From IMG/VR virus record IMGVR_UViG_2778261545_000004: 40,808 nucleotides of DNA; one strand, written 5' to 3'. Below the pieces are notes generated by a model, which saw nothing but the letters and a program-made list of their open reading frames with translations, was not told where the DNA came from and searched no databases. The number at the start of each line of letters is the position of its first letter. Position 1 is the stretch's first letter. Source of the DNA: a virus (lineage: Duplodnaviria; Heunggongvirae; Uroviricota; Caudoviricetes). A program made the position numbers and the translations under genes. Below are positions 20,801-40,808 of this stretch, piece by piece.

Positions 20801-20814
20801 TCAGGAGAAATACG

Positions 20815-22270: not shown

Positions 22271-22272
22271 GT

Positions 22273-22596
22273 ATGCTTCTGACAATGGAAGAGATTAAAG
22301 CCCAACTCCGGCTGGATGAGGATTTCGATGCTGATGACCGCCATCTGCAACTGCTGGCCTGTGCGGCGCAAAAGCGGACGGAAACGTATCTGAACCGGAA
22401 GCTCTATGCACCGGATGAAACCATTCCGGACAGCGATCCGGACGGACTGCACCTGCCGGATGATATTCGCCTGGGGATGCTGATGCTTATCAGCCATTTT
22501 TACGAAAACCGCTCGTCGGTTACGGAAGTGGAGAAACTCGACATGCCGCAGAGTTTTGGCTGGCTTGTTGGCCCGTACAGGTACTTTCCGCAATGA
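22273..22596 (+). CDS. Head-tail connector protein (gp6-like)
   Basis: 107 aa, position and acidic N-terminus typical of this family. Confidence 0.7.
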   Translation: MLLTMEEIKAQLRLDEDFDADDRHLQLLACAAQKRTETYLNRKLYAPDETIPDSDPDGLHLPDDIRLGMLMLISHFYENRSSVTEVEKLDMPQSFGWLVGPYRYFPQ

Positions 22597-23003: not shown

Positions 23004-23484
23004 TTTTCAGCAGCCCGCGGAGATGCGCTTTAACCGCGCCCGTGTCCGGCGGGCGTTTGTCACGATTGGTCAGCGTCATATGCGTGATGCCCGTCGGCTG
23101 GTGATGCGCCGTGCGCGGTCGGCACCGGGTGAAAACCCCGGTTATCAGACCGGACGCCTGGCTCGTTCGATTGGTTACATGGTACCCAGAGCCAGTAAAA
23201 AGCGAGCCGGTTTTATGACACGCATTGCCCCTAACCAGCACAACGGGAAGGGGAACCGGATGATCTCTGGTGACTTCTATCCGGCGTTTCTGTTTTTTGG
23301 TGTCCGGGGAGGAGCAAGACGTCGTCGTAGTCATCATCGTGGTGCATCCGGTGGCAGCGGCTGGCGACTGGCTCCACGTAATAACTTCATGGTGGAAACG
23401 CTTGAAAAGAACCGCAGCTGGACACGCTATTTTCTGGCGCGGGAATTGCGTAAATCACTGAAGCCGGAGCGACGACACAGATGA
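22978..23484 (+). CDS. Tail-completion protein (HK97 gp10-like)
   Basis: 168 aa, GGAGG RBS, gene order. Confidence 0.55.
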   Translation: MTTSFLHVDFQQPAEMRFNRARVRRAFVTIGQRHMRDARRLVMRRARSAPGENPGYQTGRLARSIGYMVPRASKKRAGFMTRIAPNQHNGKGNRMISGDFYPAFLFFGVRGGARRRRSHHRGASGGSGWRLAPRNNFMVETLEKNRSWTRYFLARELRKSLKPERRHR

Positions 23485-24041
23485 AACTGACGCCTGTTAT
23501 TGCTGCACTGCGTGCCCGCTGTCAGTATTTTGAAAACCGGGTTGCAGGCGCGGCCCAGTTCAAAAATCTGCCGGAGGTCGGAAAGCTGAAACTCCCGGCG
23601 GCATATGTGGTACCGGGGGATGATTCTCCGGGAGAAAACAAAAGCCAGACCGACTACTGGCAGGAGCTGAAAGAGGGCTTCTCCGTGGTTGTCATACTGA
23701 GTAACGGGCGTGATGAGCGCGGTCAGTTTGCCTCGTATGATGTGGTGGACGATGTCCGGCAGATGCTCTTTAAGGCCCTGCTGGGCTGGAACCCGGAAGC
23801 GTGCGGTAACCCGATTACCTATGACGGCGGCACGCTGCTGGATCTGAATCGTCATGAGCTGATTTATCAGTTCGATTTTTCGGTCATCAGCGAGCTTACC
23901 GAAGACGATACCCGCCAGCAGGATGACCTGAACAGTCTGGATGAACTGCAAACGCTGGCGATTGATGTTGATTATCTCGAGCCCGGTAACGGGCCTGACG
24001 GCGATATCGAACATCACACCGAAATACCCCTTCCTTCCTGA
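23481..24041 (+). CDS. Mu gp37-like tail protein
   Basis: 186 aa immediately upstream of the sheath module. Confidence 0.5.
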   Translation: MKLTPVIAALRARCQYFENRVAGAAQFKNLPEVGKLKLPAAYVVPGDDSPGENKSQTDYWQELKEGFSVVVILSNGRDERGQFASYDVVDDVRQMLFKALLGWNPEACGNPITYDGGTLLDLNRHELIYQFDFSVISELTEDDTRQQDDLNSLDELQTLAIDVDYLEPGNGPDGDIEHHTEIPLPS

Positions 24042-24049
24042 GGATCATC

Positions 24050-24220
24050 ATGTTTGTGAAACCTGTTAAAGGGCGGTCAGTGCCTGACCCTGCCCGCGGC
24101 GACCTTTTGCCCGCCGAAGGGCGAAATGTTGACGAGAACAACTACTGGCTGCGCCGTGAAGCAGCGGGTGATATCCGGCGCGTGAATAAAAAGGTGAATA
24201 CCGATGACGATAAGCTTTAA
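24050..24220 (+). CDS. Small conserved protein preceding the sheath gene (DUF2635-like)
   Basis: 56 aa MFVKPVKGRSVPDPARGDLLPAEGRNVDENNYW..., GAGGAT RBS; below ORF-track cutoff. Confidence 0.5.
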   Translation: MFVKPVKGRSVPDPARGDLLPAEGRNVDENNYWLRREAAGDIRRVNKKVNTDDDKL

Positions 24221-25700
24221 CACCATTCCGTCGAATACGCTGGTTCCGTTGTTTTATGCGGAAATGGATAACCAGGCTGCGAATACTGCACAGGACAGCG
24301 GAGCGTCGCTGCTGATTGGTCATGCCAATAACGGTGCAGAGATTGTTGCCAACAGTCTGGTGCTGATGCCGTCGGCAGACTATGCACGCCAGATTTGTGG
24401 TGCGGGAAGTCAGCTGGCGCGTATGGTTGAGGCTTATCGCCAGACCGACCCGTTTGGCGAGTTGTATGTGATTGCCGTTCCTGAATCCACGGGCGCGGCG
24501 GCAACGGTTACGCTGACGGTGACAGGGGCGGCAACCGAAACCGGCACGGTGAATGTTTATGTGGGACGTACCCGCGTGCAGGCACCGGTGACCAATGGCG
24601 ATAACGTCGCGACGATTGCCAGCAGTATCCAGGATGCCATCAATGCCGTTCCGACCCTGCCGTTTACGGCCTCATCTTCGGCAGGCGTGGTCACACTGAC
24701 CGCGCGTCATAAGGGGCTTTGCGGGAATGAAATTCCTGTCAGCCTCAATTACTACGGCTTTGGTGGGGGCGAAGTGCTGCCAGCGGGCGTACAGATTGCT
24801 GTGGCGACGGGTACCGCCGGAACGGGCGCTCCGGTTCTCACCGGTGCGGTGGCTGCAATGGCGGATGAGCCGTTTGATTATATCGGTCTGCCGTTCAACG
24901 ACACGGCCTCCGTTAACACGCTGGTGACCGAGATGAACGATACCAGCGGTCGCTGGAGCTATGCGCGTCAGCTGTATGGTCATGTGTATACGGCAAAGAC
25001 CGGCACGCTGTCAGAACTGGTGACCGCAGGTGACCAGTTTAACCAGCAGCACATTACCCTGGCGGGATACGAAAAAGAAACCCAGACACCTGCCGACGAG
25101 CTGGCGGCAAGCCGTACCGCCCGCGCAGCGGTGTTTATCCGCAACGATCCGGCACGTCCCACGCAGACCGGTGAGCTGGTGGGTATGCTGCCTGCGCCGA
25201 AGGGGAAACGGTTCACGATGACAGAACAACAGACCCTGCTGTCTCATGGCGTGGCAACGGCGTATGTCGAAAGTGGGGTACTGCGCATTCAGCGTGATGT
25301 CACCACGTACAGGAAAAACGCTTACGGGGTTGCGGATAACAGCTACCTCGACAGCGAGACGCTGCATACCAGTGCGTATGTACTGCGCAAACTGAAATCC
25401 GTCATTACCAGTAAGTACGGGCGTCACAAGCTTGCCAGCGACGGTACCCGCTTTGGTCCCGGTCAGGCGATTGTCACCCCGGCGGTGATCAAAGGGGAAC
25501 TGCTGGCAACCTACCGTCAGCTTGAGCGTGCGGGGATCGTGGAAAACTACGAACTGTTTAAGCAGTACCTGGTTGTGGAGCGTGATGCCAGCGATCCGAA
25601 CCGCCTGAACACGCTGTTCCCGCCTGACTATGTTAACCAGTTGCGTGTTTTTGCCGTGGTTAACCAGTTCCGTCTTCAGTATTCAGAGGAGTCCGCATAA
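24204..25700 (+). CDS. Contractile tail sheath protein (Mu L-like)
   Basis: 498 aa; size and position upstream of the tube gene. Confidence 0.85.
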   Translation: MTISFNTIPSNTLVPLFYAEMDNQAANTAQDSGASLLIGHANNGAEIVANSLVLMPSADYARQICGAGSQLARMVEAYRQTDPFGELYVIAVPESTGAAATVTLTVTGAATETGTVNVYVGRTRVQAPVTNGDNVATIASSIQDAINAVPTLPFTASSSAGVVTLTARHKGLCGNEIPVSLNYYGFGGGEVLPAGVQIAVATGTAGTGAPVLTGAVAAMADEPFDYIGLPFNDTASVNTLVTEMNDTSGRWSYARQLYGHVYTAKTGTLSELVTAGDQFNQQHITLAGYEKETQTPADELAASRTARAAVFIRNDPARPTQTGELVGMLPAPKGKRFTMTEQQTLLSHGVATAYVESGVLRIQRDVTTYRKNAYGVADNSYLDSETLHTSAYVLRKLKSVITSKYGRHKLASDGTRFGPGQAIVTPAVIKGELLATYRQLERAGIVENYELFKQYLVVERDASDPNRLNTLFPPDYVNQLRVFAVVNQFRLQYSEESA

Positions 25701-26056
25701 TGGCCCGTATCGGGGGAACCTGTTATTTCAAAATTGACGGTCAGCAGCTATCGCTGACCGGCGGCATTGAGGTGCCCATGAACAAAACGGTTAACGATGA
25801 CATCATCGGTCTGGACGGTTCAGTGGACCGCAAGGAAACTCACCGTGCGCCTTATGTCAAAGGGACCTTCAAGGTGCCGAAGAGTTTTCCGGTGAGCAAA
25901 ATCACCTCGTCTGATGAGATGACCATCACTGCCGAGCTGGCGAACGGTCAGGTCTATGTATTGTCGTCAGCCTGGCTGCACGGCGAAGCGAACCATAATG
26001 CCGAAGAAGGCACAGTCGATCTTGAGTTCCACGGTGAAGAAGGGGATTACCAGTAA
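25700..26056 (+). CDS. Tail tube protein (Mu M-like)
   Basis: 118 aa directly after the sheath. Confidence 0.8.
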   Translation: MARIGGTCYFKIDGQQLSLTGGIEVPMNKTVNDDIIGLDGSVDRKETHRAPYVKGTFKVPKSFPVSKITSSDEMTITAELANGQVYVLSSAWLHGEANHNAEEGTVDLEFHGEEGDYQ

Positions 26057-26325
26057 TGAAAGAGCTTGAGTTAAAGAAACCGATTATTGCTCATGGCGAG
26101 ACACTCTCCGTACTGGAGTTTGATGAACCCACCGGGAAGGATGTCCGCGAGCTGGGGTATCCCTACCAGATGAATCAGGATGAGTCCGTCAGACTTCTGG
26201 CGCATGTGGTGTCGAAATACATTGTGCGGCTGGCGAAAGTGCCGCAAAGCTCTGTCGACCAGATGTCTCCGGCAGACCTGAATGCAGCGGCGTGGCTTGT
26301 GGCCGGTTTTTTCCTCCAGGCCTGA
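26056..26325 (+). CDS. Tail assembly chaperone (short form)
   Basis: 89 aa immediately upstream of the tape measure gene. Confidence 0.7.
   Translation: MKELELKKPIIAHGETLSVLEFDEPTGKDVRELGYPYQMNQDESVRLLAHVVSKYIVRLAKVPQSSVDQMSPADLNAAAWLVAGFFLQA
26307..26313 (+). promoter_or_regulatory. -1 programmed ribosomal frameshift slippery heptamer T_TTT_TTC
   Basis: Heptamer in correct phase (codons GGT TTT TTC) 10 nt before the chaperone stop; -1 frame stays open to 26474. Confidence 0.6.
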
Positions 26326-26474
26326 CGGCTGAATACCTCACTGATCGCTTCTTTGACTGCGCCAGTTACTGGCGCATTAATCCCTTCGAATTGCTGAATA
26401 TGCCGATCAGTGAAATTCCCTTGCTGGTCAGTCAGGCAAACAGGATAGAGCAGGAGAAACGCACACATGGCTGA
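26307..26474 (+). CDS. Frameshift extension of the tail assembly chaperone (long form C-terminus)
   Basis: -1 frame after the slippery site reads FFPPGLTAEYLTDRFF... for 55 codons and overlaps the tape measure start. Confidence 0.55.
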   Translation, partial: FFPPGLTAEYLTDRFFDCASYWRINPFELLNMPISEIPLLVSQANRIEQEKRTHG

Positions 26475-28299
26475 ATTTGAGCTTAAGGCGTTGATCACCG
26501 GTGTCGACAGGCTTTCTCCCGCGCTGTCGAAAATGCAAAAGAAAATCCGGGGATTTAAACGCCAGGCGGAAGAAGCGTCACAGGGTGGGCTGGCGCTTGG
26601 TGGCGGACTGGCAGCGGGTCTGACGCTTTCCCTGAAATCTTATGCCGATCAGGAAAACGCCGCCACCGGGCTGAAAGTCGCCATGATGGATGCGAACGGC
26701 GAGGTTGGAAAGAGCTTTCAGGACATCAATAAACTGGCTATTGGCCTGGGTAACCAGCTACCCGGTACAACGGCTGATTTCCAAAACATGATGCAGATGC
26801 TGGTACGTCAGGGGATCCCGGCAGAAAACATTCTGGGTGGTGTGGGTAAAGCGACAGCTTATCTTGCGGTACAACTGAAAAAAACACCGGAAGCGGCTGC
26901 TGAGTTTGCTGCAAAGATGCAGGATGCTACCGGAACGGCGTCAGAAGACATGATGGGGCTGTTCGACACTATCCAGAAGGCGTTTTATCTGGGCGTTGAC
27001 GATACCAACATGTTGTCCTTCTTCACTAAAACCAGTTCTGTTCTGAAGATGGTGAACAAGGACGGTCTTCAGGCTGCACAGAGCCTTGCCCCCATCAGCG
27101 TCATGATGGATCAGATGGGGATGAACGGGGAGTCGGCAGGTAACGCCCTGCGAAAAGTTATCCAGTCCGGATTAAGCGTTAAGAAAATCAGGGACGTCAA
27201 TAAAATCATGGCCCGCCAGAAACTCGGGGTACAGCTCGATTTTACTGACGGCAAAGGAAGTTTTGGCGGTCTTGATAACATGTTCAGGCAACTGGCAAAG
27301 CTGCGAAAACTGACCGACGTTAAGCGAACAGGTGTACTTAAGGCAATATTTGGTGATGATGCCGAAACCCTTCAGGTGGTCAATGCACTAATCGATAAAG
27401 GAAAGGATGGCTACGATCAGATCCAGCAGAAGATGAATAAACAGGCCAGCCTGAATAAACGTGTTCAGGCTCAGCTTGGTACGCTGTCCAACCTGTGGGA
27501 GGCAATGACAGGGACCGCAACTAACGGCCTTGCGGCTATTGGCGGCGCATTTTCTGGTGACGCTAAAAATATCACGCAATGGCTGGGGGAGTTGGGGGAG
27601 AAATTCACGAAGTTTGCGGATGAAAATCCCCGGATTATTCGCGGCGTCGTCGGGCTTGCTGCCGGTCTTGCGATTCTGAAACTGGGATTGATGGGCGTTG
27701 GCGGTGCCATCAGTATTGTCAGCAGGATCATGTCGATGACGCCGATTGGCATGATTGCGACGGCGATAGCCCTGGCTGCGGGATTAATTATCACTAACTG
27801 GGATGTTGTCGGACCTTATTTTAAGAAACTATGGGAAACCATTGGTCCTTATTTTGAGGCTGGCTGGGAACTCCTTAAGAAAGTTTTTGCCTGGTCGCCG
27901 CTGGGGATGGTGATCAATAACTGGGGACCGGTTGTTAAGTGGTTTCAGGATATGTGGGATAAGCTGAAGCCGATTATTGAATGGTTTACCGACAGTTCCG
28001 GTGACACGGTCGATGCCATTAACTCGGCGCAGTGGGGCGCGGGTGCTTATGATGCTTATGGGACGGGAATACCGGCACGGGGATACACTCCTTATCCGGC
28101 GGTGGATCCGGCTCAGGTAAACAACGCCTCCGATGCCACAGGCTCGAATCCCTTCATGATTAATAAAGCTACCGCGCCAAAAGTTGATGGTGAGATCAAG
28201 GTATCATTTATAAATATGCCACCAGATATGCGGGTTACGGAAACACGCTCCAGTGGCATTGATATAAATCACGATGTCGGCTATACCCGATTTTGGTAG
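26467..28299 (+). CDS. Tail tape measure protein
   Basis: 610 aa, helical Ala/Gly-rich, central hydrophobic segments. Confidence 0.9.
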   Translation: MAEFELKALITGVDRLSPALSKMQKKIRGFKRQAEEASQGGLALGGGLAAGLTLSLKSYADQENAATGLKVAMMDANGEVGKSFQDINKLAIGLGNQLPGTTADFQNMMQMLVRQGIPAENILGGVGKATAYLAVQLKKTPEAAAEFAAKMQDATGTASEDMMGLFDTIQKAFYLGVDDTNMLSFFTKTSSVLKMVNKDGLQAAQSLAPISVMMDQMGMNGESAGNALRKVIQSGLSVKKIRDVNKIMARQKLGVQLDFTDGKGSFGGLDNMFRQLAKLRKLTDVKRTGVLKAIFGDDAETLQVVNALIDKGKDGYDQIQQKMNKQASLNKRVQAQLGTLSNLWEAMTGTATNGLAAIGGAFSGDAKNITQWLGELGEKFTKFADENPRIIRGVVGLAAGLAILKLGLMGVGGAISIVSRIMSMTPIGMIATAIALAAGLIITNWDVVGPYFKKLWETIGPYFEAGWELLKKVFAWSPLGMVINNWGPVVKWFQDMWDKLKPIIEWFTDSSGDTVDAINSAQWGAGAYDAYGTGIPARGYTPYPAVDPAQVNNASDATGSNPFMINKATAPKVDGEIKVSFINMPPDMRVTETRSSGIDINHDVGYTRFW

Positions 28300-28327
28300 C
28301 CAGGATTCCCCTCACAGGTATTGCTGG

Positions 28328-28355
28328 TTGTAAGTCATAAATAGAGTGATAGAAT
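28328..28355 (+). promoter_or_regulatory. Candidate sigma70 promoter of the tail-embedded moron (-35 TTGTAA, 16 bp, -10 TAGAAT)
   Basis: Hexamers read directly, about 35 nt upstream of ATG 28391. Confidence 0.4.
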
Positions 28356-28390
28356 TAATGCACATTTAGAAAAATGTTAATAGGCGAAAA

Positions 28391-28921
28391 ATGAAAGGCT
28401 ATATCACAGCAAGTGTAATTCTTGGAGCAGCGGCTGTTTTTTCATCTCTCATAATCTCTGGCAACATCTCCTTTAAAGATGAACATATTATTCAGTTATC
28501 TGGAGGAGCCATAAAACTTGGTGATGTTTATAAAGAAAATAAATTGATAAGTGCAAAGATTATTTTTCCAGATAATCAGGGTGAACAGATTCTTGTTGTC
28601 GACGGCAATCCTGAAAACTTTAAGGAGGATTTTCAGGAGAAATTAAATAAAGTAATAAAAACTTTAAATGCGTCAAAGAAAAAAGATGAAGAGAAAGTTA
28701 GCCTGGATAATTTAAGTGTTATTGAAGAGTCTAAACTAGAGCTCGTTTCTGCGGTGCGTTACTCTGCTCAGTATGTTCCTATGTTTACTCTGACGCTGGA
28801 CAAAAAAGAAATTACCATGCCTAAAAATACGGTAATATTTCCATTTGCCAGCGATGAAACAGCTAAGTATTTAAATGAACAACAGCAAAAGTATAAAGAT
28901 TCGTTGTTTCTGACTCGCTAA
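28391..28921 (+). CDS. Hypothetical membrane-anchored or exported protein (moron inside the tail operon)
   Basis: 176 aa, N-terminal hydrophobic signal/anchor, Lys/Glu-rich, strongly AT-rich; own promoter and terminator. Confidence 0.6.
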   Translation: MKGYITASVILGAAAVFSSLIISGNISFKDEHIIQLSGGAIKLGDVYKENKLISAKIIFPDNQGEQILVVDGNPENFKEDFQEKLNKVIKTLNASKKKDEEKVSLDNLSVIEESKLELVSAVRYSAQYVPMFTLTLDKKEITMPKNTVIFPFASDETAKYLNEQQQKYKDSLFLTR

Positions 28922-28941
28922 TTAATAAAATTCATTACAAG

Positions 28942-28972
28942 GCCACCTTCTAATAGGTGGCTTTTTTATTTT
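28942..28972 (+). terminator. Rho-independent terminator after the moron
   Basis: GCCACC-TTCTAATA-GGTGGC followed by TTTTTTATTTT. Confidence 0.65.
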
Positions 28973-28982
28973 CGGAGTGTAT

Positions 28983-30311
28983 ATGACGTGGAAAGACAGG
29001 CTTCAGGATGCGTCATTTCGAGGTGTGCCGTTTAAGGTTGAAGAAGAAAGTGCGGGAACCGGCCGTCGTGTGGAAACACACGAATATCCGAACCGCGACA
29101 AACCCTATACCGAAGATCTGGGAAAAGTCACTTTCCGCCCGTCCATCACGGCTTATGTGGTGGGAGATGACTGCTTTGACCAGCGCGATCGCCTGATTGA
29201 CGCGCTGAATAAACCCGGTCCCGGCACGCTTGTCCACCCGACATACGGTGAGTTGAAAGTCTGTGTTGACGGGGAAGTTCGGGTCAGCACATCGAAGAGT
29301 GAAGGGCGTATTGTCCGCTTTGACCTGAAGTTTGTCGAAGCGGGAGATCTCTCTTACCCCACATCAGGCGTGGCGACGGCGCAGACGCTGATGTCATCCT
29401 GTTCTGCACTGGATGACTGCATCAGTGACAGCTTCAGCGGTTTCAGTATCGATGGCGTGGCGGATTTTGTGCAGAACGACGTTATCGGTAATGCCAGCAC
29501 AATGCTTGGGTATGTTTCTGATGCGATGAAAGTGGTGGATTCTGCCGTATCGGATGCCGCCAGGCTGTTGCAGGGTGATATCTCGGTACTTCTGCCGCCG
29601 CCATCGTCAGGCAAAAATTTCGTTGAGCAGGTGCAGAAAATGTGGCGTACCGGGAAACGCCTTTATGGTAACGCCAGCGACCTGGTCACCATGATCAAAA
29701 CGCTTTCCGGTGTCAGCCTCGGCAGCGATCTGCAACCGCGCGGCGTCTGGAAAACGGACAGTAAAACCACCGCCACGGCGACGCAGCAGCGTAACGTGGT
29801 TGCCAGCACCCTTCGTACGACCGCAATCAGCGAAGCGGCGTATGCCGTCATCCGATTGCCTGCGCCAACAACTTCCGCGGTGATGCAGAATGCCACAGTG
29901 GGGCAGGCAACAACACCCGCGCAGAGCACTGGCTGGCCTTCCGTCACGCATCCGGTACTGAACAATGCACCGGCGGTGAAAAACACGGTTGACCTGCCGA
30001 CGTGGGAAGAACTGACTGACATTCGCGACACACTGAATACGGCAATTGATAAGGAGTTGTCCCGTACAACCAGCGATGCGCTGTTTCTGGCGCTGCGCCG
30101 GGTGAAAGCAGATCTGAATGCGGATATCAACACGCGCCTTGAACAGTCTGCACGGATCATTCAGCGCACACCGGATGAGGTTTTACCCGCGCTGGTGCTG
30201 GCGGCGACCTGGTTTGATAACGCGGCGCGTGACGCGGACATTATCCGGCGTAATGCCATTACGCATCCCGGCTTTGTGCCGGTGATCCCTCTGAAGGTGC
30301 CAGTGCAATGA
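28983..30311 (+). CDS. DNA circulation protein (Mu N-like)
   Basis: 443 aa from ATG 28983 (GGAG 5 nt upstream); position after tape measure. Confidence 0.75.
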   Translation: MTWKDRLQDASFRGVPFKVEEESAGTGRRVETHEYPNRDKPYTEDLGKVTFRPSITAYVVGDDCFDQRDRLIDALNKPGPGTLVHPTYGELKVCVDGEVRVSTSKSEGRIVRFDLKFVEAGDLSYPTSGVATAQTLMSSCSALDDCISDSFSGFSIDGVADFVQNDVIGNASTMLGYVSDAMKVVDSAVSDAARLLQGDISVLLPPPSSGKNFVEQVQKMWRTGKRLYGNASDLVTMIKTLSGVSLGSDLQPRGVWKTDSKTTATATQQRNVVASTLRTTAISEAAYAVIRLPAPTTSAVMQNATVGQATTPAQSTGWPSVTHPVLNNAPAVKNTVDLPTWEELTDIRDTLNTAIDKELSRTTSDALFLALRRVKADLNADINTRLEQSARIIQRTPDEVLPALVLAATWFDNAARDADIIRRNAITHPGFVPVIPLKVPVQ

Positions 30312-31387
30312 ACGACAATGTCACGCTACGGGTAAATGGCCGGGAGTGGAATGGCTGGACATCGGTGCGCATCGGTGCCGGTATTGAACGGCTGGCGCGG
30401 GATTTCAGCGTGGAGATCACCCGCCAGTGGCCGGGTGATGAGGGTATTACCACGCTTCAGCCGCGCATTAAAAACGGTTCAAAAGTGGAGGTGCTGATTG
30501 GTGATGAGCTGGTGATCACCGGCTGGGTGGAGGCGACGCCCGTTCGTTACGATGCCCGTTCGGTCAGCACCGGTATTGCCGGACGTAGTCTGACGGCTGA
30601 CCTGATTGACTGTGCAGCCGAACCGACACAGTTTAACGGACGATCACTGGTACAGATTGCGCAGGCGCTTGCTGCGCCCTTCGGCATTGAGGTGGTGAAC
30701 AGCGGTGCGCCGTCGGGTGTTATTCCTGATGTCCAGCCCGATCACGGTGAAACGGTGATCGAGGTGATTAACAAAATACTCGGTCAGCAGCAGGCGCTGG
30801 CTTATGACGACCCGCACGGCAGGCTGGTGATTGGCGGTATTGGCTCAACGCGGGCACATACCGCGCTGGTACTCGGGGAAAACATCCTTTCCTGCGATAC
30901 GGAGAAGAGTATCCGGGAGCGATTTTCTGTTTACCAGGTGGCGGGGCAGCGTGCCGGAAACGACGATGATTTCGGTGAGGCCACCACCACCGCGCTGCGG
31001 GCCCGCACAGAGGACGCATTTATTGCCCGTTACCGTCCGATGTATATCAGGCAGACAGGGCAGGCTACGGGGGCAGGTTGTATTGCCCGTGCGGACTTTG
31101 AGGCCCGACAACGGGCGGCGCGGACGGATGAAACCACCTATGTGGTGCAGGGCTGGCGACAGGGTAACGGTACGCTGTGGCAGCCCAACCAGCGGGTGAT
31201 TGTCTTTGATCCGGTCTGTGGTTTCGACAATACCGAACTGCTTGTTTCGGAAGTCACGTTTACTCAGGACCAGAACGGCACCCTGACGGAAATCCGTGTC
31301 GGCCCGCCTGATGCTTATCTGCCTGAACCCGAAGCCCCCGGCGCGCGGAAAAAGAAAAAAGCCAGAGTACAGGAGGACCCGTTCTGA
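30308..31387 (+). CDS. Tail/baseplate hub protein (Mu P-like)
   Basis: 359 aa, overlapping start. Confidence 0.75.
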   Translation: MNDNVTLRVNGREWNGWTSVRIGAGIERLARDFSVEITRQWPGDEGITTLQPRIKNGSKVEVLIGDELVITGWVEATPVRYDARSVSTGIAGRSLTADLIDCAAEPTQFNGRSLVQIAQALAAPFGIEVVNSGAPSGVIPDVQPDHGETVIEVINKILGQQQALAYDDPHGRLVIGGIGSTRAHTALVLGENILSCDTEKSIRERFSVYQVAGQRAGNDDDFGEATTTALRARTEDAFIARYRPMYIRQTGQATGAGCIARADFEARQRAARTDETTYVVQGWRQGNGTLWQPNQRVIVFDPVCGFDNTELLVSEVTFTQDQNGTLTEIRVGPPDAYLPEPEAPGARKKKKARVQEDPF

Positions 31388-31935
31388 TGAGGACGATTGA
31401 AGCCATGCAGCGACAACTCCTCGGCCTGATTGGGCGGGCCGTGGTGAAAAGCATCAGTGCCGCCACGAAATGTCAGACCGTGGATGTGTCCCTGATTGCC
31501 GGTGAACCCAAAGCCGGGGTTGAACATCTTGAACCCTACGGTTTTACCGCAAGGGCAAACAGCGGTGCGGAAGCGGTGGTGTTGTTTCCGGATGGCGACC
31601 GTTCTCATGCGGTGGTTGTTACGGTGTCGGACCGTCGCTACCGCCTGAAAGGGCTGCAGACGGGCGAGGTGGCTGTCTATGACGATCAGGGGCAGTCCGT
31701 GACGCTGACCCGGGAGGGGATCGTGGTGGACGGTGCAGGTAAAACGATCACGTTTCGCAATGCACCTGAAGCACGTTTTGAAATGGACCTGGAAGTGACC
31801 GGACAGGTGAAAGACCTGTGCGACTCCGGCGGCACCACCATGTCAGCGATGCGGCTTGCCTATAACGGGCATAGTCACAGAGAGAACGGTCAGGGCAGTA
31901 ACACCGACAAACCGGATAAAGCGATGGAGGCATGA
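31387..31935 (+). CDS. Baseplate assembly protein V-like (spike)
   Basis: 182 aa, gene order. Confidence 0.75.
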   Translation: MRTIEAMQRQLLGLIGRAVVKSISAATKCQTVDVSLIAGEPKAGVEHLEPYGFTARANSGAEAVVLFPDGDRSHAVVVTVSDRRYRLKGLQTGEVAVYDDQGQSVTLTREGIVVDGAGKTITFRNAPEARFEMDLEVTGQVKDLCDSGGTTMSAMRLAYNGHSHRENGQGSNTDKPDKAMEA

Positions 31936-32360
31936 TGGAACTGTGGCTGACGGTGAACGGTAAACGCACCTGCGCCAGCGCACCGCTGGATCCGCTGACC
32001 CGCGCCGTGGTGATTTCCCTGTTTACCTGGCGGCGGGCGGAGCCTGATGACAACGCCGACGTCCCGATGGGATGGTGGGGGGATACCTGGCCTGCGGTAC
32101 AGAATGACCGTTACGGCTCCCGACTGTGGCTGCTTCAGCGCAGCAAACTGACCAATCAGCTGGTGCAGACGGTAAGGGGGTATATCCGCGAATGCCTGCA
32201 ATGGATGATTGATGATGGCGTGGTGTCCCGTATTGATCTGGATATCCGCCGCACCGGGATTAATGAACTGGGTAACAGTATCACTCTCTGGCGTCGTGAC
32301 GGACCGGTAATGATTTCTTTTGATGATCTGTGGAGTGCGATAACGCATGGCGGACAGTGA
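31932..32360 (+). CDS. Baseplate protein (Mu gp46 / W-like)
   Basis: 142 aa, gene order. Confidence 0.7.
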   Translation: MMELWLTVNGKRTCASAPLDPLTRAVVISLFTWRRAEPDDNADVPMGWWGDTWPAVQNDRYGSRLWLLQRSKLTNQLVQTVRGYIRECLQWMIDDGVVSRIDLDIRRTGINELGNSITLWRRDGPVMISFDDLWSAITHGGQ

Positions 32361-33405
32361 ATTTCAGCGCCCGACGCTGGCAGAAAATATCAGTATGCTC
32401 CGTAACGATTTATTCGCCAGGCTGGACGTCAGCGACACGCTCCGGCGCATGGATGAAGACGTGCGGGCAAAGGTGTATGCGGCGGCGCTGCATACGGTTT
32501 ACGGTTACATCGATTATCTGGCAATGAACATGCTGCCTGACCTGTGCGATGAGTCCTGGCTGGCGCGACATGCTGCGATGAAACGGTGTCCGCGCAAGGG
32601 GGCCACGGCTGCCAGCGGGTATATGCGCTGGGAAGGTGTCAGCGATGGCCTGAAGGTGACTGCCGGGAGCGTGATTCAGCGCGATGACCTGGTTCAGTAC
32701 ACGGCAACTGCTGATGCAACCAGCTCCGGTGGTGTCCTGCGCGTGCCGATCACTTGCTCAAGTGCAGGCGCGGTCGGTAACGCTGACGACGGTACGGCAT
32801 TAATCCTGGTCACGCCGGTGAATGGTCTGCCGTCTTCCGGTGTTGCAGATACTCTGACTGGCGGATTCGATACTGAAGATCTGGAAACGTGGCGCGCCCG
32901 CGTCATTGAGCGGTATTACTGGACGCCGCAGGGCGGGGCTGACGGGGACTATGTCGTCTGGGCTAAAGAAGTGCCCGGCATTACCCGCGCATGGACATAC
33001 CGTCACTGGATGGGAACGGGAACTGTCGGTGTGATGATTGCCAGCAGTGACCTGATTAATCCCATTCCGGAAGAATCAACGGAAACGGCGGCAAGACAAC
33101 ATATCGGGCCACTGGCCCCGGTGGCAGGCTCTGATTTGTATGTGTTCAGGCCGGTGGCACATACGGTGGATTTTCATATCCGCGTGACGCCGGACACACC
33201 GGAAATACGGGCTGCCATCACCGCGGAGTTGCGTTCGTTCCTGCTGCGTGATGGTTATCCGCAGGGAGAACTGAAGGTATCGCGTATCAGTGAGGCGATT
33301 TCCGGTGCGAACGGGGAATACAGCCATCAGTTGCTTACACCGGCAGACAATATCTCCATTGCAAAAAATGAACTGGCGGTACTGGGGACGATTTCATGGA
33401 CGTGA
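32347..33405 (+). CDS. Baseplate J-like protein (Mu gp47)
   Basis: 352 aa, gene order. Confidence 0.8.
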
Positions 33406-33980
33406 CAAACGATGATTACATCCGTCTGTTGTCGGCACTGTTGCCCCCCGGTCCGGCGTGGTCAGCCAGCGATCCGGCGATTGCCGGTGCGGCACCGTCA
33501 TTAACCCGCGTTCATCAGCGTGCGGATGCCCTGATGCGGGAGCTGGATCCGCGCACCACCACTGAACTGATAAACCGCTGGGAGAGTCTGTGCGGTCTGC
33601 CGGATGAATGTATTCCCGCAGGGACACAGACCCTTCGCCAGCGTCAGCAACGGCTGGATGCGAAGGTTAACCTGGCGGGCGGCATCAACGAGAATTTTTA
33701 TCTTGCACAGCTTGCTGCCCTGGGCAGACCAGACGCTACCATCACGCGATACGACAAAAGCACGTTCACCTGCTCATCGGCCTGTACTGACGCGGTGAAT
33801 GCGCCGGAATGGCGGTATTACTGGCAGGTCAACATGCCAGCCGCCACAAACACCACCTGGATGACATGTGGCGATCCCTGTGATTCCGCGCTGCGTATCT
33901 GGGGCGACACCGTTGTCGAATGTGTGCTTAACAAACTCTGCCCGTCGCATACCTACGTAATTTTTAAATATCCGGAGTAA
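33396..33980 (+). CDS. Tail protein (Mu gp48 / P2 I-like)
   Basis: 194 aa preceding the tail fibre gene. Confidence 0.7.
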
Positions 33981-33983
33981 TCC

Positions 33984-34811
33984 ATGCATCGTATAGACAC
34001 GAAAACCGCGCAGAAGGATAAGTTCGGCGCGGGTAAGAACGGTTTTACCCGTGGTAACCCCCAGACTGGCACACCTGCCACCGATCTGGATGATGACTAC
34101 TTTGATATGTTGCAGGAAGAACTCTGCAGCGTGGTGGAGGCATCCGGTGCCAGCCTGGAGAAGGGGCGAAACGACCAGTTGCTTACCGCGCTTCGTGCTC
34201 TGCTGTTAAGCCGCAAGAATCCGTTTGGTGATATCAAATCGGATGGCACGGTGAAAACGGCTCTCGAAAACCTTGGTTTGGGAGAAGGCTCAGCATTACC
34301 CGTTGGTGTGCCTGTTCCGTGGCCTTCAGCCACTCCGCCAACAGGCTGGCTGAAATGCAATGGTGCGGCTTTTTCTGCTGAAGAATACCCGGAACTGACA
34401 AAGGCTTACCCGACCAATAAATTGCCTGATTTACGCGGTGAATTTATTCGTGGCTGGGATGATGGACGTGGAGTGGATGCGGGGCGAGCCTTGCTAAGTC
34501 TTCAGAATGACTCTTTTGAAGCTCACAGGCATGAGTCCTTTTTTTACGCGGGTATTTCACGCAATGAAACACCATTAAAAAATCTTCCAAGTTCAGACGA
34601 GATGCTGACTTTAAGTTCCACAACTAATGCCTTGTCCCCGGACAGTATTGATGCCACCAATTCGTTAATTGGTAATGATGATTACAACTGTCTGATTGAA
34701 GGAAATAAAAATAACAAACGAACGGCAACGGGGTTGAGTACCAGTATTGTCGGTGCAGCAGAGACACGCCCACGTAATATTTCATTTAATTACATTGTGA
34801 GGGCTGCATGA
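33984..34811 (+). CDS. Tail fibre protein (constant N-terminus fused to currently expressed variable C-terminus)
   Basis: 275 aa; conserved N-terminus [21 protein letters not shown]; recombination site lies at codon ~93. Confidence 0.8.
34261..34286. promoter_or_regulatory. DNA invertase crossover site (hix/gix-like), left
   Basis: CTCTCGAAAACC-TT-GGTTTGGGAGAA; 20 of 26 positions match the right site in inverted orientation. Confidence 0.5.
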
Positions 34812-35413
34812 TGTATAACGCCATCTTAAATAATAAATTTATTGCCACAAAGGCAGGAGAGATTACCGTTTATAACTATGACAGTGAGACACGGGAGTAT
34901 ATTTCTGCATCAACTGAATATCTTGCTGTGGGTGTCGGTATCCCTGCATATTCCTGTTTAGATGCTCCTGACACACATAAGGTTGGTTATGCAATCTGCC
35001 GTTCGGCAGATTTAAACTCATGGGAATATGTGCCAGACCATCGCGGTGAAGTTGTCTATAACACCGAAACGGGAGAATCAAAAGAAATCACAGCTCCGGG
35101 TGATTACCCTGAAAATACAACCACTATCGTCCCGTTAACGCCATACGATAAATGGGATGGTGAGAAATGGGTGACAGATACTGAGGCACAGCATAGTGCC
35201 GCAGTAGACGCGGCAGAAGCACAGCGCCAGTCGCTGATTGATGCTGCAATGGCTTCCATCAGTCTGATTCAACTGAAATTACAGGCCGGGCGGAAGCTGA
35301 CGCAGGCAGAAACAACCCGATTTAACGCCGTGCTGGATTACATTGACGCGGTGACGGTAACAGATACCAGCACCACGCCGGATGTCATCTGGCCTGAACT
35401 GCCGGAGGCGTAG
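34808..35413 (+). CDS. Tail fibre assembly chaperone (Tfa), currently expressed orientation
   Basis: 201 aa, conserved C-terminus ([12 protein letters not shown]); ATGA overlap with fibre stop. Confidence 0.8.
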
Positions 35414-35813
35414 GCCATTCAATATCGGGTGCTGTTGAAGTATCAACACGCATCAGCAGCACACGGTATTTCTTCCATTCGGTGAGAGTTGAAGTTTCTT
35501 CATCAGTTGCGATATCAGCATCAACAGCATCCTGACGCCAGGATATTTCACTGTCAGCTTTTTCCCGTAATTGGGATTTTTTAACTTCAGCAATAGCTAT
35601 TAATTCCTTTTTGGTCGGCTGAGGAATATCTATCAGTGCTGGTTTTCCATTCAGTGTTCCAATCTGTTTTCCTGGTGGAATATCCGTAAATAACTTTTTA
35701 TGTTCTTCCTCACTGACTATTACACCATCATCAGGCCACAGACCTGATGCCTCAAATTTTTCTTTCTCCGATATGGGGAAAAAGCCATTTGCTTTAGCGC
35801 TCCATACGTACAT
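35385..35813 (-). CDS. Alternative tail fibre assembly chaperone (inverted cassette)
   Basis: 142 aa, conserved C-terminus ([10 protein letters not shown]); convergent 29-nt overlap with tfa. Confidence 0.75.
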
Positions 35814-35814
35814 A

Positions 35815-36109
35815 TCAATACCCCACCGCTATAATGTCCACATTAAATCCCCCGGGACCTGCCTGCCAGATGCTGGCCCCTGTTAATGATTTTGTTTGAT
35901 GAACAACCGCCACATTTGCTGGCGATTGTGTTTCAGTTGTTACAGTACCGATATCATTCCAGTTAATTGAGATGGAATAGTTCGTTGTTGTAAACGACCG
36001 GGGGAAAGTTATGTGTCTTACATTGGTGCCGACAGGAAATCCAAGATAAACACGCTGAATTATCATTCCTCCAGGTAACATAACCCAGTTAGCACCTTCT
36101 CCAAAACCA
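35815..36109 (-). other. Promoterless alternative tail-fibre C-terminal cassette (expressed only after inversion)
   Basis: Reverse-strand coding segment beginning at the right crossover site; inversion would fuse it in frame to the fibre N-terminus. Confidence 0.6.
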
Positions 36110-36122
36110 ACGTTTATGAAAA
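36097..36122. promoter_or_regulatory. DNA invertase crossover site (hix/gix-like), right
   Basis: TTCTCCAAAACC-AA-CGTTTATGAAAA resembles the Hin hixL sequence as recalled (TTCTTGAAAACCAAGGTTTTTGATAA). Confidence 0.55.
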
Positions 36123-36176
36123 TGCAGAAATAACGAGCAAATGGCATCATTCCTGCTTTTGTCAGAGGGATCCACT

Positions 36177-36368
36177 ATGCTTATTGGCTATGTACGCGTA
36201 TCAATAAATGACCAGAACACAGATCTACAACGTAATGCGTTGAACTGTGCAGGATGCGAGCTGATTTTTGAAGACAAGATAAGCGGTACAAAGTCCGAGA
36301 GCCTAGGGCTGACAGTGCTGTTCTTGATGCAAATTAAAGGATTTAATAGTGAGTTGCGGCCTTACTAA
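36177..36368 (+). pseudogene. pin: Truncated serine DNA invertase (Pin/Gin/Hin family), N-terminal ~41 codons only
   Basis: MLIGYVRVSINDQNTDLQRNALNCAGCELIFEDKISGTKSE matches the invertase N-terminus including the catalytic Ser region, then diverges and stops; full-length is ~185 aa. Confidence 0.7.
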
Positions 36369-36401
36369 TGTAAGGCCGCTATAATCATTTTATTAATTGC
36401 A

Positions 36402-38291
36402 TTAATCGTATTTTGGCCATACTTTCAATGCAATTTCCCCCAACTTTTTACCTCGCTCCAGTATTTCACTCTCATCCCATTTATCCTTAAGTATAAGTGG
36501 TATGTTCAGTCGTAGATTGGTGTGGACGATGAGAGCATCACGTTTTTTCAGAAATACAGCATTCTGAACGGAACGGTTTACGCTAAGGTTAAGCAAAGTT
36601 AGATTTCCCAACGTAGCTATCGCTTGTTGCCGTTTCCTTACCAGTAGCTGTTCAGGGGTAAGATCGGTTCCAGACAGAACAATTTGGTTCATTACCGTAG
36701 CATCTGAATTTGTCACCATATGACCATTTTCGAGAGGCCAACAGGAATACCAACTTTGAGGCATAAGATGATCGATATCGAGATTAGAAAGATTTGGAAC
36801 ATCAGGCTTTTCTGTCTTTACTTGGCGACAAAGTTCTCTTTCAAGTTCCGTTAACATTGAGCGCATTTTCGGTGCGTCGAGCCTGCCAGGATAAAGTGGA
36901 GCATTGATGCAAGCGTTGAGAAATTCTGAGTCCCCAGGCCAACGTGAGGCTTCGCCATTTAAGCTATTGAGGATATTACGTAACTCAATACTGGAAATTT
37001 CCGTTTTAGACAAGTGTCGCAATACATTCATAAATACATTGTTGTAATTCTTTGGCGTCAGGCCACATACGGATCTTCGTACTACGTAGGAGACAAGATC
37101 ATTATACATGGCTGCTTTCTCATCATCGGCGATGTTAGCTATCGAAATGAACAAAGCAAGCGGATAGAGTGTCGTCACATCATAGGCTGCGATGCGATGT
37201 CCAAAGTGTGAGATGGGGGTTGTGCCAAAACCACCAACCAATTCTTTATATTGTGATGCATATTGTTTGAGGCGCTTTACTTGCAGATCTGCTCGTTGTG
37301 AAGGCAAGTCCTTACTTACATAATCACGATACTCATTGTAAAGGCGAGACAGATCAATTTCACGCTGCCTTTCTGATTGCAATGTCGCATGTACAAGCCA
37401 CTCCATGCGTGGTTTATTAATACGTCCACGGCGTTGCTTTTCCGACCAGTATTTATCTTCAAAGATCTTCCACTCATTTTCATATAATTCAATAGTATTA
37501 ATATTTTCATGCTCAGCGCACATAAAGATATAGTTGCGAATAAGATCCGTTGCATGAAGTTCCGCTCCTCGCCCATTTAATGTTTCAAAAATTATTTGGG
37601 CATCATCTTCAGCTTCGAGAAATATGCTTACCAGTTTCAGATCCGTCAAGACAGCCTCAATTAGTGCTACAGCATTTTCTTGTGGTGAGCGGTTTTCTAT
37701 TTTAATCCATTTTATAAAGGCTTCAGTAAAAAACCATAATGCCTCTAGTGACGGCGGGTGGTTGAAATGTTTACGTAACGTACCATGTTGCGTGAAGCTA
37801 TCAGAAAATACATTACGGAGATCGTCAATATTATCAACATTAAGACTTTGAATAAAATGAGTTTGATCTCGAAAAGTTGGCCACAGTTTGAAGCATTCTA
37901 CCTTTTTATTTCTCATCGTTGCTTCGTTTGTATTTTTCAAGCAAGTCAATACTAACCCTTCCAGTTCAGAAAGGCCTGTAGCACGCAATGATAATCGAAT
38001 GGATGCCAGAATATATTGAAGAGTGGTTAAACGTTGCTGGCCGTCAATAATATGTATGGTATCTACACCTAACAAGCTGTTTTTGAGTTGAGGTTCCAGC
38101 ACCACCGCGCCGAGGAAATGAGGGGTTGGTTTTGTTCCCGAAAGTCGGCTCTGTGCTTTTTCGAAGATATCCTCCAGCAAAGCTGACCATTGGTTTCGTT
38201 GCGTCCATACGTAGGCACGTTGATAGAATGGAACACGATATTGTCGTTGATTTTGGAAAATTTGCTGGATGGTTAGCGTTTCGGATTTCAT
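36402..38291 (-). CDS. GmrSD-family type IV (modification-dependent) restriction endonuclease, fused DUF262-DUF1524
   Basis: 629 aa; N-terminal VPFYQRAYVW and IIDGQQRLTTL (DUF262), C-terminal DIDHLMPQSW ... GNLTLLNLSVNRS (His-Me finger); AT-rich. Confidence 0.8.
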   Translation of the reverse strand: MKSETLTIQQIFQNQRQYRVPFYQRAYVWTQRNQWSALLEDIFEKAQSRLSGTKPTPHFLGAVVLEPQLKNSLLGVDTIHIIDGQQRLTTLQYILASIRLSLRATGLSELEGLVLTCLKNTNEATMRNKKVECFKLWPTFRDQTHFIQSLNVDNIDDLRNVFSDSFTQHGTLRKHFNHPPSLEALWFFTEAFIKWIKIENRSPQENAVALIEAVLTDLKLVSIFLEAEDDAQIIFETLNGRGAELHATDLIRNYIFMCAEHENINTIELYENEWKIFEDKYWSEKQRRGRINKPRMEWLVHATLQSERQREIDLSRLYNEYRDYVSKDLPSQRADLQVKRLKQYASQYKELVGGFGTTPISHFGHRIAAYDVTTLYPLALFISIANIADDEKAAMYNDLVSYVVRRSVCGLTPKNYNNVFMNVLRHLSKTEISSIELRNILNSLNGEASRWPGDSEFLNACINAPLYPGRLDAPKMRSMLTELERELCRQVKTEKPDVPNLSNLDIDHLMPQSWYSCWPLENGHMVTNSDATVMNQIVLSGTDLTPEQLLVRKRQQAIATLGNLTLLNLSVNRSVQNAVFLKKRDALIVHTNLRLNIPLILKDKWDESEILERGKKLGEIALKVWPKYD

Positions 38292-38547
38292 TGTTTACCT
38301 ATAAATAACATTAAGTGACATTCTACAAGAGTAAGAAATTCATCTGAGTCAGAACAATCATTTTTATGTAGTTATGATACAGTGTATTTGTTACTGGTGA
38401 AGTAAAAATAAGAAACCCCGCTTTTGAATGCTGACGCGCTACGGTTTCATTGGATATTTTTTGTCTCTCCTCCATCCCGTTGGTGTTCTGTTTAGACTGA
38501 TAACTTGCTGTTTTAATTGATATTAGTTTCTTGCGCCGTCCAATCAT

Positions 38548-38579
38548 GGTTGGTGGGTTGGTGGGTTGGTGGGTTGGTG
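38548..38579. repeat. Tandem octamer repeat (GGTTGGTG) x4
   Basis: Read directly; G-tract spacing compatible with a G-quadruplex; about 260 bp upstream of the GmrSD start. Confidence 0.8.
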
Positions 38580-38646
38580 GGAGTTAAATCCACATTGGTA
38601 TGAATAACATAGAATATGAATTAGTGTTTCAGAATTGCTTCAGCCA

Positions 38647-38976
38647 TCACTTTTTAATACGTTCAATTTGAATGTTTATTTCCGAAACAATTTTTTCAGG
38701 TTTCAGTCCCTCGTTAGATTGCACAAAATCTCTAATTTGCATCATTCGATGTGCACAAATTTGTAATTCGCTATAAACACTTAGCTCGTCAGATTCATTT
38801 TGAGATTGTTCACCTGTTTAAAATTCTACATAAGTATGTGGCGGATTGTGATAAACACGAGAAATCGGGGTTGGCCACCATTCCTCACCGGTCACTACGT
38901 CCGCATCGAATAGTACAGTTTTGTCAATTTCCATTAATTTCTGGATAAGAACAGAAGTTTTCAAGCGAACCTCCAT
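38647..38976 (-). pseudogene. ORF interrupted by one in-frame TAA (possible pseudogene)
   Basis: 52 codons, TAA at 38818-38820, then 56 more protein-like codons in the same frame; no clear RBS. Confidence 0.2.
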
Positions 38977-39120
38977 TTTGCCATAAAGTGGTTATCAAAA
39001 CGCTACGTAAACTATACAAAATCAGCGAGTTATGGTGAAGGTAAAAAAACAAGTTTAGATGTTCGTTAAGTATAAAATTGTTTTAATTCAATTGGATATA
39101 ATAATTTTCTAAATCTAATG

Positions 39121-39282
39121 TTACGCCATATGGGCTGGACTGAAGCCGCAGACCTGATTGTTAAAGGTATGGAAGGCGCAATCAACGCCAAGACTGTAAC
39201 CTATGACTTCGAACGTCTGATGGAAGGCGCTAAACTGCTGAAATGTTCAGAATTTGGTGATGCGATCATCAAGAACATGTAA
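39121..39282 (+). pseudogene. icd: Displaced 3' fragment of isocitrate dehydrogenase gene (icd), 53 codons
   Basis: Reads [53 protein letters not shown], matching the Icd C-terminus as recalled; in-frame TAA immediately upstream. Confidence 0.75.
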
Positions 39283-39305
39283 TCACTACATGTGTTTAAT
39301 ATTGC

Positions 39306-39337
39306 AACGGGCGTATAACACGCCCGTTGTTTTATTT
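39306..39337 (+). terminator. Rho-independent terminator (native icd terminator)
   Basis: AACGGGCG-TATAACA-CGCCCGTT followed by GTTTTATTT, 24 nt after the icd stop. Confidence 0.65.
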
Positions 39338-39384
39338 ATGTAGGTATTATTAATAGCATATCGAGCATATTTATATAAAACCCT

Positions 39385-39708
39385 TTACTTGAGCCCATAT
39401 GGGCATATTTTTATAATGCAACTATTATGCAAACATTTATTTGTTATTTTGCTTTCTCCTGGAGGACACTCTTGACTGCTTTTGAGTAGACTCCATAAAT
39501 CCTTGTTGAATGGTGCGATGTTATAAATAGTAATAGGATATTCTTTATCTTTAAGGATAATTCCAGATTTAACCGGTGTAAATATACTGCCAGGAGGGAG
39601 AAATATAGTAGATTGATACCAGATGATCATTTTCATATTACCCCATATGGCTGAAAAAGATATGCCGCATGAAGGTTGAATTATCGTGTCAATTACTATC
39701 CACTTCAT
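39385..39708 (-). CDS. iraM: Anti-adaptor protein IraM-like
   Basis: 107 aa, [23 protein letters not shown]... matches IraM as recalled; position next to the icd fragment as in E. coli K-12. Confidence 0.6.
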
Positions 39709-40143
39709 TTGTTATGTCTTATCCCACGGTATTTAATATAGTTCATTTGGATGTTCATTTCTTTATTTTGCATATGAGTATATTACCCCTTCAAAAAATA
39801 AATTAATTAAAACGATTACTTATATAAAACAAAATTTAAAGCAAGGAATCTCAATGGATGTTAAACAAAATGAGATTTAGTGAAAACAATAAATTATTCA
39901 CTTCGTTTTAGATTTGTTTAGCTATAATGTTATACATTCAAATGACTGAACATCCTGTAATTAAAACATAGCCTTTATGCTACTTTGTGCCAATTTGCTA
40001 AACATTATGGTTGCCTTTTTATATAACGATAATAATGAATATAAGCATGACATGAGAATAAGGTTTCAATTTTTGAGTTATATAGGAAAGGTTTAACCTG
40101 TTCCTGGCTAAAATACATATAACTGGATGATGACTAAACCAAA

Positions 40144-40196
40144 AAACATGTGCGTTAAGTATTGAAACGGGCGTATGGCACACCCGTTGTTTTTAT
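40144..40196 (+). repeat. Second diverged copy of the icd-terminator element
   Basis: AACATGTGCGTTAAGTATTGAAACGGGCGTATGGCACACCCGTTGTTTTT is ~85% identical to 39289-39337. Confidence 0.6.
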
Positions 40197-40403
40197 AAAT
40201 ATATTAACCGTTATAAAATAACGTATAGAAAGTCAAGTGATCACATTTCAAATATCAATTTGATAGTATTGGCATGGTGATTATTTATGGGTAGCAATAA
40301 AAGGACAGTATTTATCATCCATAGGGATAGTCTCTGTACTTTTATTCCCATTATGCTAATGCCTTACTGAATTATGAAGCATTTCTTAAGCATCCAACTT
40401 TAG

Positions 40404-40808
40404 CTAGATTAATGGTTTATTATTTTCTACATCTTCAATATATAAAAGCGTATTATCAATGGCGTAGTAACTGCGTTTGTTATGATTAACATCAGTAACC
40501 CACCGGAAAACGCCCGCGCCTGCTAGTGTTGAACAGTATTCCCGAAATGTAGATTTTCCGCAAATATGAAGCAATGCGGCCTCTTTTATTTTAGCAGGGT
40601 TCTTGGTCGTACTAACTTTTAACAGGTTCCTGGTTCCTCTTAATAACAAAACCGTGTCATCGTGAGTAATAATTCTGATGTTATCCGTAGCCAGATAATA
40701 AATGTAATGTGCAATACGGTGATGTTTTAATTCTGAATAAAACCAGGAGAAGTTTTGCTCTTTTCTCACTTGCTCAAACATCTTTTGAAAAACAACGACC
40801 TGATCCAT
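40404..40808 (-). CDS. ycgX: YcgX-like protein (DUF1398 family); start codon coincides with the window edge
   Basis: 134 aa ORF; size and position after iraM match E. coli K-12 order (from memory); N-terminus could extend beyond the window. Confidence 0.45.
   Translation of the reverse strand: MDQVVVFQKMFEQVRKEQNFSWFYSELKHHRIAHYIYYLATDNIRIITHDDTVLLLRGTRNLLKVSTTKNPAKIKEAALLHICGKSTFREYCSTLAGAGVFRWVTDVNHNKRSYYAIDNTLLYIEDVENNKPLI

Follow-up and report, generated by a model that had tools for sequence, protein, structure and literature searches.

A displaced icd 3' end at the predicted attR of a full-length e14-family prophage

Results

Genes and features at the right end of the prophage

The window, i.e. 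the whole 40,808-nt stretch analysed here (IMG/VR record IMGVR_UViG_2778261545_000004), is taken up almost entirely by the body of an e14-family prophage with SfV/SfI-like contractile-tail morphogenesis genes (1-39117). To the right of this body lies, on the plus strand, the coding sequence for Icd residues 363-416 followed by TAA (39118-39282, assigned by translation), which is a promoterless pseudogene equivalent to icdC of K-12. It is followed by the native icd intrinsic terminator (39304-39340, plus strand), with an 11-pair stem that includes 7 G-C pairs and a T tail, the same sequence being found in the unoccupied attB. The hairpin proper (39304-39330, with the T tail running to 39340) has a predicted folding energy of -20.9 kcal/mol (z = -4.7). 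Beyond the terminator are two host genes on the minus strand, iraM (39385-39708; NCBIfam anti-adapter protein IraM, 3e-51) and ycgX (40404-40808; Pfam DUF1398, 1e-47).

An earlier, sequence-only reading had described this junction as a 53-codon C-terminal fragment of icd with an in-frame TAA immediately upstream, followed by the icd terminator and iraM/ycgX-like genes. The fragment, the terminator and the identity of the two flanking genes all hold. The length does not, as we count 54 sense codons plus the stop (165 bp, equal to the length of K-12 icdC), and neither does the in-frame stop: translation places the nearest one at 39073-39075 (TAA), 15 codons upstream of the fragment's ATG, and the TAA that abuts this ATG (TAATG, 39116-39118) is out of frame.

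When 39100-39340 was aligned with icd and with the e14 attL and attR, as that reading had proposed, the fragment aligned to icd and the junction matched the e14 attR. The fragment and terminator together (39118-39340) match the intact icd of strain RM10042 at its 3' end in 223 of 223 positions; in this strain the site is unoccupied and icd directly abuts iraM without an insert. The identity of the fragment is 95% to the phage-borne icd end of strain SOI121 (copy A, described below), 92% to K-12 icdC and 84% to the e14-borne end of the K-12 icd. Moreover, when the 5' part of icd, the fragment and iraM were joined into a synthetic empty site, 3016 of the 5426 complete E. coli genomes, RM10042 among them, contained it without interruption, with identities of up to 99.6%. 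Because the fragment is 100% identical to the unoccupied attB and contiguous with the host flank, it is, judged by these alignments, the native icd 3' end of the host, displaced by the insertion. The annotation of the matching genomes gives it as a partial pseudogene of isocitrate dehydrogenase.

About 860 bp downstream of the icd terminator region, between ymgK and ymgL (40146-40193, plus strand), is a degraded repeat of it. It matches at 41 of 48 nucleotides, folds weakly (-9.9 kcal/mol, z = -1.0) and is also present in the empty-site strain RM10042; a pattern search of K-12 did not find it. We considered whether 40166-40193 could be the relic of an ancient attR and rejected this, the similarity of the upstream sequence to icd coding sequence scoring 22 against a shuffle mean of 24.9. 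At this second copy only the hairpin is duplicated, and the icd coding part has no duplicate. An Rfam search of the whole window matched no family.

The core block and the phage/host boundary

For the junction, we aligned the window with attL and attR of K-12, attL of SOI121, the unoccupied attB and attP of phage 21. Phage-side sequence gives way to icd between 39117 and 39118, to the nucleotide as in the K-12 e14 attR. From here, a block of 11 bp (39118-39128, plus strand; ATGTTACGCCA in the window, ATGYTRCGCCA as a pattern), which covers icd codons 363-366, is common to attL and attR, and the crossover must fall inside it. The very next position, 39129, is T in attR and native icd (His366 CAT) and C in attL and the phage-borne copy. 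The pattern occurs once in the window, at 39118, compared with 0.03 occurrences expected by chance; a second core, or an attL, within the window was thus rejected as a candidate. This 11-bp core was derived here by sequence comparison, and it is said to agree with that of Brody and Hill (1988). The exact point of strand exchange would lie somewhere within these 11 bp.

The boundary can also be seen in the comparison with strain LST200A, which carries the same prophage in a different host background: the two sequences agree throughout 38650-39120, and 39121 is the first position at which the host alleles differ. The Leu364 codon (39121-39123, TTA or CTG) tracks the host allele at both junctions and in both backgrounds, which suggests that it is part of the identity or overlap block. 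Alternatively, the phage variants may match their hosts at this codon.

Integrase, excisionase and arm sites

Two genes on the minus strand near the left end of the window encode the recombination proteins: intE (1452-2579), a tyrosine integrase identical to the K-12 e14 IntE at 350 of 373 residues (94%), and the excisionase gene xisE (2560-2805), the product of which is identical to the K-12 e14 XisE at 77 of 81 residues (95%). The integrase is 59% identical to the Int of phage 21 and 36% to that of lambda. On the P arm of the right junction, an exact match to GGTTATCAAAA (38990-39000, plus strand) is a candidate e14-type integrase arm site. It is located 127 bp left of the core, compared with 128 bp in the K-12 e14 attR, and with one mismatch allowed the motif is found four times in the window versus 0.9 expected. 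In attL of both K-12 and SOI121, three tandem copies of the arm motif follow the icd terminator. In phage 21, a different motif, TTCCCCAAAA, occupies the analogous one-plus-three positions, where it is annotated as attP subsites P1P2P3. By analogy with these annotated sites, GGTTATCAAAA may be bound by Int. The phage 21 motif (YTTCCCCAAAA) was not found near the junction, and its sole match in the window with one mismatch is at 36096, against 2.2 expected. Given the 94% identity of Int, the 95% identity of Xis, the e14-type arm motif and the absence of the phage 21 motif near the junction, the integration system is, by homology, of the e14 type and not of the phage 21 type.

A further exact copy of GGTTATCAAAA was noticed directly 5' of the xis start codon (2806-2816, minus strand). 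It is present in SOI121 and absent at the equivalent place in the K-12 e14, and it may be a chance occurrence or a lineage-specific regulatory site.

The left end in the closest genomes

As attL and the body of icd fall outside the window, the other end of the element is known from near-identical genomes. The closest complete genomes are those of SOI121, LST200A and GPEC1031; SOI121 has 7 differences from the window in the first 12 kb and is 99.5% identical over 33000-40808. All three strains have an intact icd of 416 codons (1251 bp) with a phage-borne 3' end, its stop lying 1,260 bp left of position 1 and e14-type arm sites following it. In these genomes the true left end of the prophage, attL in icd, is about 1.4 kb left of position 1, and the core-to-core distance is about 40.5 kb.

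The stretch between icd and the window start holds, in order, copy A with three arm sites, a 204-aa gene, an integrase fragment and copy B. Copy A is the working icd surrogate of the phage. The integrase fragment consists of ~94 codons from the C-terminus of another e14-type integrase (65-73% identical), and copy B is a decayed second icd surrogate with three stop codons and without the core. Just left of window position 1, the 204-aa membrane-protein gene, the integrase fragment and copy B form a fossil (positions 4742-6000 of the SOI121 left-end locus), a stretch found in 32-33 complete genomes. The 204-aa gene occurs, among complete E. coli genomes, only in the 33 that bear this composite. 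No complete E. coli genome was found to contain an intact donor of the integrase remnant; the closest intE to it is 80% identical at the DNA level.

Comparing SOI121, GPEC1031 and LST200A, the host DNA up to the core is about 1.4% different, and beyond it there are no differences for at least ~2.5 kb. The left-end differences between strains stop at 4543-4582 of the SOI121 locus, and those at the right end start at window position 39121. Because the fossil is identical across hosts whose flanks have diverged by ~1.4%, it is, on this comparison, part of the present mobile unit. The possibility that the icd-completing codons in SOI121 come from a different, dead element was also considered and rejected, as no differences between these strains were seen in copy A, the remnant, copy B or the cargo.

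The prophage body and its completeness

Open reading frames are kept for the terminase, portal, protease, capsid, connectors, sheath, tube, tape measure, baseplate and fibres. By blastn, the match of the K-12 e14 to the window is interrupted twice. The first gap (8371 to 17601) extends from a gene for replication as far as that for the large terminase subunit and corresponds to the chimeric gene ymfN, and the second (19338 to 32618) runs from the portal gene to baseplate J and corresponds to beeE/jayE. By these coordinates, the K-12 e14 corresponds to this phage with two internal deletions, of ~9.2 and ~13.3 kb, and the prophage keeps the ~22.5 kb lost from e14. The earlier suggestion that the element is far more complete than the e14 remnant is thus borne out, with ~40.5 kb compared with 15.2 kb and both of the blocks that e14 has lost present.

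Over window positions 1-25000, 80% is matched at 96.6% identity by the prophage record vB_EcoM-689R6, and the Shigella phages SfI, SfII, SfIV and SfV are 95-97% identical over 34-40% of the same region. We rejected vB_EcoM-689R6 as a free-phage reference, as this record is a predicted prophage with host flanks included, and used phage 21 for attP instead.

Cargo genes

Adjoining attR is a cargo gene of the GmrSD family of type IV restriction enzymes (36402-38291, minus strand), as predicted from a full-length match to the PADLOC model mREase_IV (E = 0, 1516 bits), with the Pfam domains GmrSD_N (DUF262; 2e-33) at the N-terminus and GmrSD_C (DUF1524; 4e-19) at the C-terminus. It occupies the slot of pinE-mcrA in the K-12 e14. 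Next to it, a remnant of pin, the tail-fibre invertase (36178-36312, plus strand), is cut by the GmrSD cassette after ~45 codons: homology to the e14 pinE ends at 36312 (blastn matches cover 36095-36312 only), and in SOI121 the remnant is annotated as a partial recombinase pseudogene. With pin truncated by the cassette, the tail-fibre switch should therefore be frozen. In the same region, segment 34759-35447 is inverted relative to the K-12 e14. Between the GmrSD gene and the core, a spacer of 826 bp contains a 52-aa ORF (38818-38976, minus strand) with a weak match to VC1380, which covers the N-terminal 46 of the 112 model positions at an E-value of 0.003, far below the cutoff; this ORF is probably a gene remnant.

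At the opposite end, between attL and intE, two overlapping genes on the minus strand (1-465 and 440-1336) form an operon in the slot of ymfD-ymfE-lit in e14. The first encodes a 154-aa protein with long hydrophobic stretches, membrane-spanning by the look of it, and the second a soluble protein of 298 aa. Neither was matched in Pfam, PADLOC, NCBIfam or PHROGs. Other icd prophages have different cargo in this slot, and we regard the pair as a candidate uncharacterised defence or abortive-infection system. Another defence candidate is the gene for a 279-aa TIR-domain protein (13181-14020, minus strand; PADLOC TIR-TM, 2e-57; Pfam TIR_2). Its location, flanked by the antiterminator Q gene and the lysis genes and on the opposite strand, is one where morons, i.e. 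accessory genes inserted in prophages, are typically found.

Discussion

Taken together, the findings indicate that 38990-39340 is almost certainly an attR, P-O-B' in lambda terms, belonging to a full-length prophage of the e14 family inside icd. That the integration is of the e14 style had been proposed from the sequence; the boundary at the e14 attR nucleotide, the e14-type Int and Xis and the spacing of the arm motif all agree with it. The mechanism would be as follows. The attP of the phage would include a copy of the final 54 icd codons and of the terminator, as is seen in sequenced virion genomes, e.g. that of phage 21, where the same icd surrogate, terminator and arm sites are found in attP. 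The e14-type tyrosine integrase would recombine attP with attB at ATGYTRCGCCA, so that the host icd is completed at attL by the phage-borne copy and stays functional. The attL would then be expected to consist of icd with ATGYTRCGCCAC, the 54-codon surrogate, the terminator and three GTTATCAAAA repeats, and the native 3' end with its terminator would become an unexpressed pseudogene beside iraM, at attR, ~40.5 kb further downstream. Int and Xis acting on attL and attR would restore the native icd. RecA, acting on direct repeats of ~218 bp with 95% identity, would also leave icd intact, possibly as a chimera. The mechanism is established for the lambda-type integrase, e14 and phage 21 (PMC6379469, PMC10111431, PMC12803456, PMC13626634), and Int/Xis-dependent excision has been published for e14 (PMC13626634 and references therein); by analogy with e14, this copy of the prophage may be excised in the same manner.

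The alternative that survives best is that the junction is a fixed relic, i.e. that the prophage is grounded, with no excision by Int and Xis, and that the icd repeats recombine only by RecA. It is consistent with the truncation of pin and the replacement of the e14-like right end by the GmrSD cassette, with the one early gene that is annotated as frameshifted in SOI121, and with the degenerate second icd copy and integrase fragment inside the element, which show past rearrangement. Nevertheless, we regard it as unlikely. Both int and xis are intact, with 94-95% identity to those of e14, a prophage that does excise (PMC13626634), the core and the arm motif are intact as well, and the head, tail and lysis ORFs are all open. 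Moreover, near-identical copies in hosts with ~1.4% flank difference imply recent horizontal movement of the 40.5-kb unit. Since pin is truncated and an early gene is annotated as frameshifted in SOI121, it can still be hypothesized that the phage is partly defective.

Two other explanations, equally improbable, are refuted by the comparisons made here. The insertion of a phage 21-type element, a lambdoid siphovirus with another integrase acting on this attB, might be considered since phage 21 and many lambda-like phages carry icd surrogates 90-95% identical to the fragment at this same site (PMC12803456), but the integrase is far closer to IntE of e14 (94%) than to Int of phage 21 (59%), YTTCCCCAAAA is absent near the junction and at chance level at 36096 while the e14-type motif is present, and the virion genes are of the contractile-tail type. 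That the fragment is itself a phage-borne surrogate, on an attL-like side or in a free attP, could be argued from how similar such surrogates are to native icd (e.g. 95% for copy A of SOI121), yet the fragment is 100% identical to the unoccupied attB, terminator and run into iraM included, it has the native/icdC state T at 39129, where attL copies have C (PMC13626634, Table 1, in which the His366 CAC/CAT marker is used as the signature of e14 excision), and no e14-type triple arm sites follow its terminator.

The attR reading places the junction next to several known systems. The nearest is the attR of e14 itself in K-12, where icdC (b4519, 1211413-1211577) has the same 165-bp icd end and the same junction nucleotide, the terminator is the same, the flank is the same iraM-ymgK-ymgL-ycgX, and GGTTATCAAAA is found at the matching distance from the core. 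The differences lie in the host allele, with Leu364 being TTA in the window and CTG in K-12 and with D/E and K/E differences near the C-terminus of the protein; in the size of the prophage and the two segments that e14 has lost; in the cargo, which is GmrSD in place of pinE-mcrA at attR and differs from ymfD-ymfE-lit at attL; and in the sequence of the P arm, which has diverged outside the functional motifs. In the case of phage 21, the attP with its icd-like pseudogene (OL657228.1, 27333-27599) corresponds to the same attB in icd and has the same layout, i.e. an arm site ~128 bp left of the core, the core, a 54-codon surrogate, the terminator, three tandem arm sites, int and xis. Phage 21 differs in its Int, in its arm motif (TTCCCCAAAA versus the e14-type GTTATCAAAA) and in being a lambdoid siphovirus.

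With the attR of lambda (P-O-B'), the similarity extends to a tyrosine integrase with an arm-binding domain, the need for Xis and the order attL-int-xis, tail genes, attR. Elements that integrate into gene 3' ends, in tRNA genes and icd, likewise keep their target functional by means of a surrogate 3' end (PMC10111431). Compared with lambda and the tRNA integrators, the target here is a protein-coding gene and the identity block extends beyond the core for ~220 bp. Finally, the serotype-converting Shigella myoviruses SfI, SfII, SfIV and SfV are alike in their early and morphogenesis genes, and their kinship with e14 has been published (PMC3636060); they differ in integrating at tRNA-thrW, in having another int/xis module and gtr genes, and in lacking an icd surrogate.

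The left end read in the closest genomes hints at the history of the element. Two elements that lay in tandem at icd were probably fused long ago by a deletion, of which the fossil would be the scar. Going one step further, it can be proposed, tentatively and with somewhat more doubt than belief, that the mobile unit is a fusion product, that tandem icd elements fuse, and that their att-proximal ends are exchangeable slots for defence genes.

The arrangement itself is widespread. The icd-iraM site is not contiguous in ~44% of 5,426 complete E. coli genomes, an e14-type intE-xisE pair is present in 497 of them, and the exact junction, counted where at least 80% of 38950-39720 was covered, is found in 155, several of them at 100% identity. 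Knowledge of the e14-type icd arrangement goes back to the 1980s, many RefSeq genomes already carry an annotation of this junction, and phage 21 is annotated with the icd-like pseudogene in its attP. The reading of the right end is thus correct, and what it describes is an arrangement already known, with an attachment mechanism described in 1988-1997.

Conclusions

The analysis fixes the right boundary of the prophage to the base, at 39117/39118. For annotation, this means that 39118-39282 is a pseudogene and not a small gene, and that everything to the right of 39118 is host chromosome. No new question about the attachment mechanism is raised. The prophage, as a full-length relative of the K-12 e14 remnant, shows which two blocks e14 has lost. 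If the fusion proposed for the left end is true, phages of the icd site could gain new att-proximal cargo by fusing with a tandem neighbour; the cargo would then be the two-gene operon (1-1336) at one end and GmrSD at the other, to be compared with lit and mcrA in e14.
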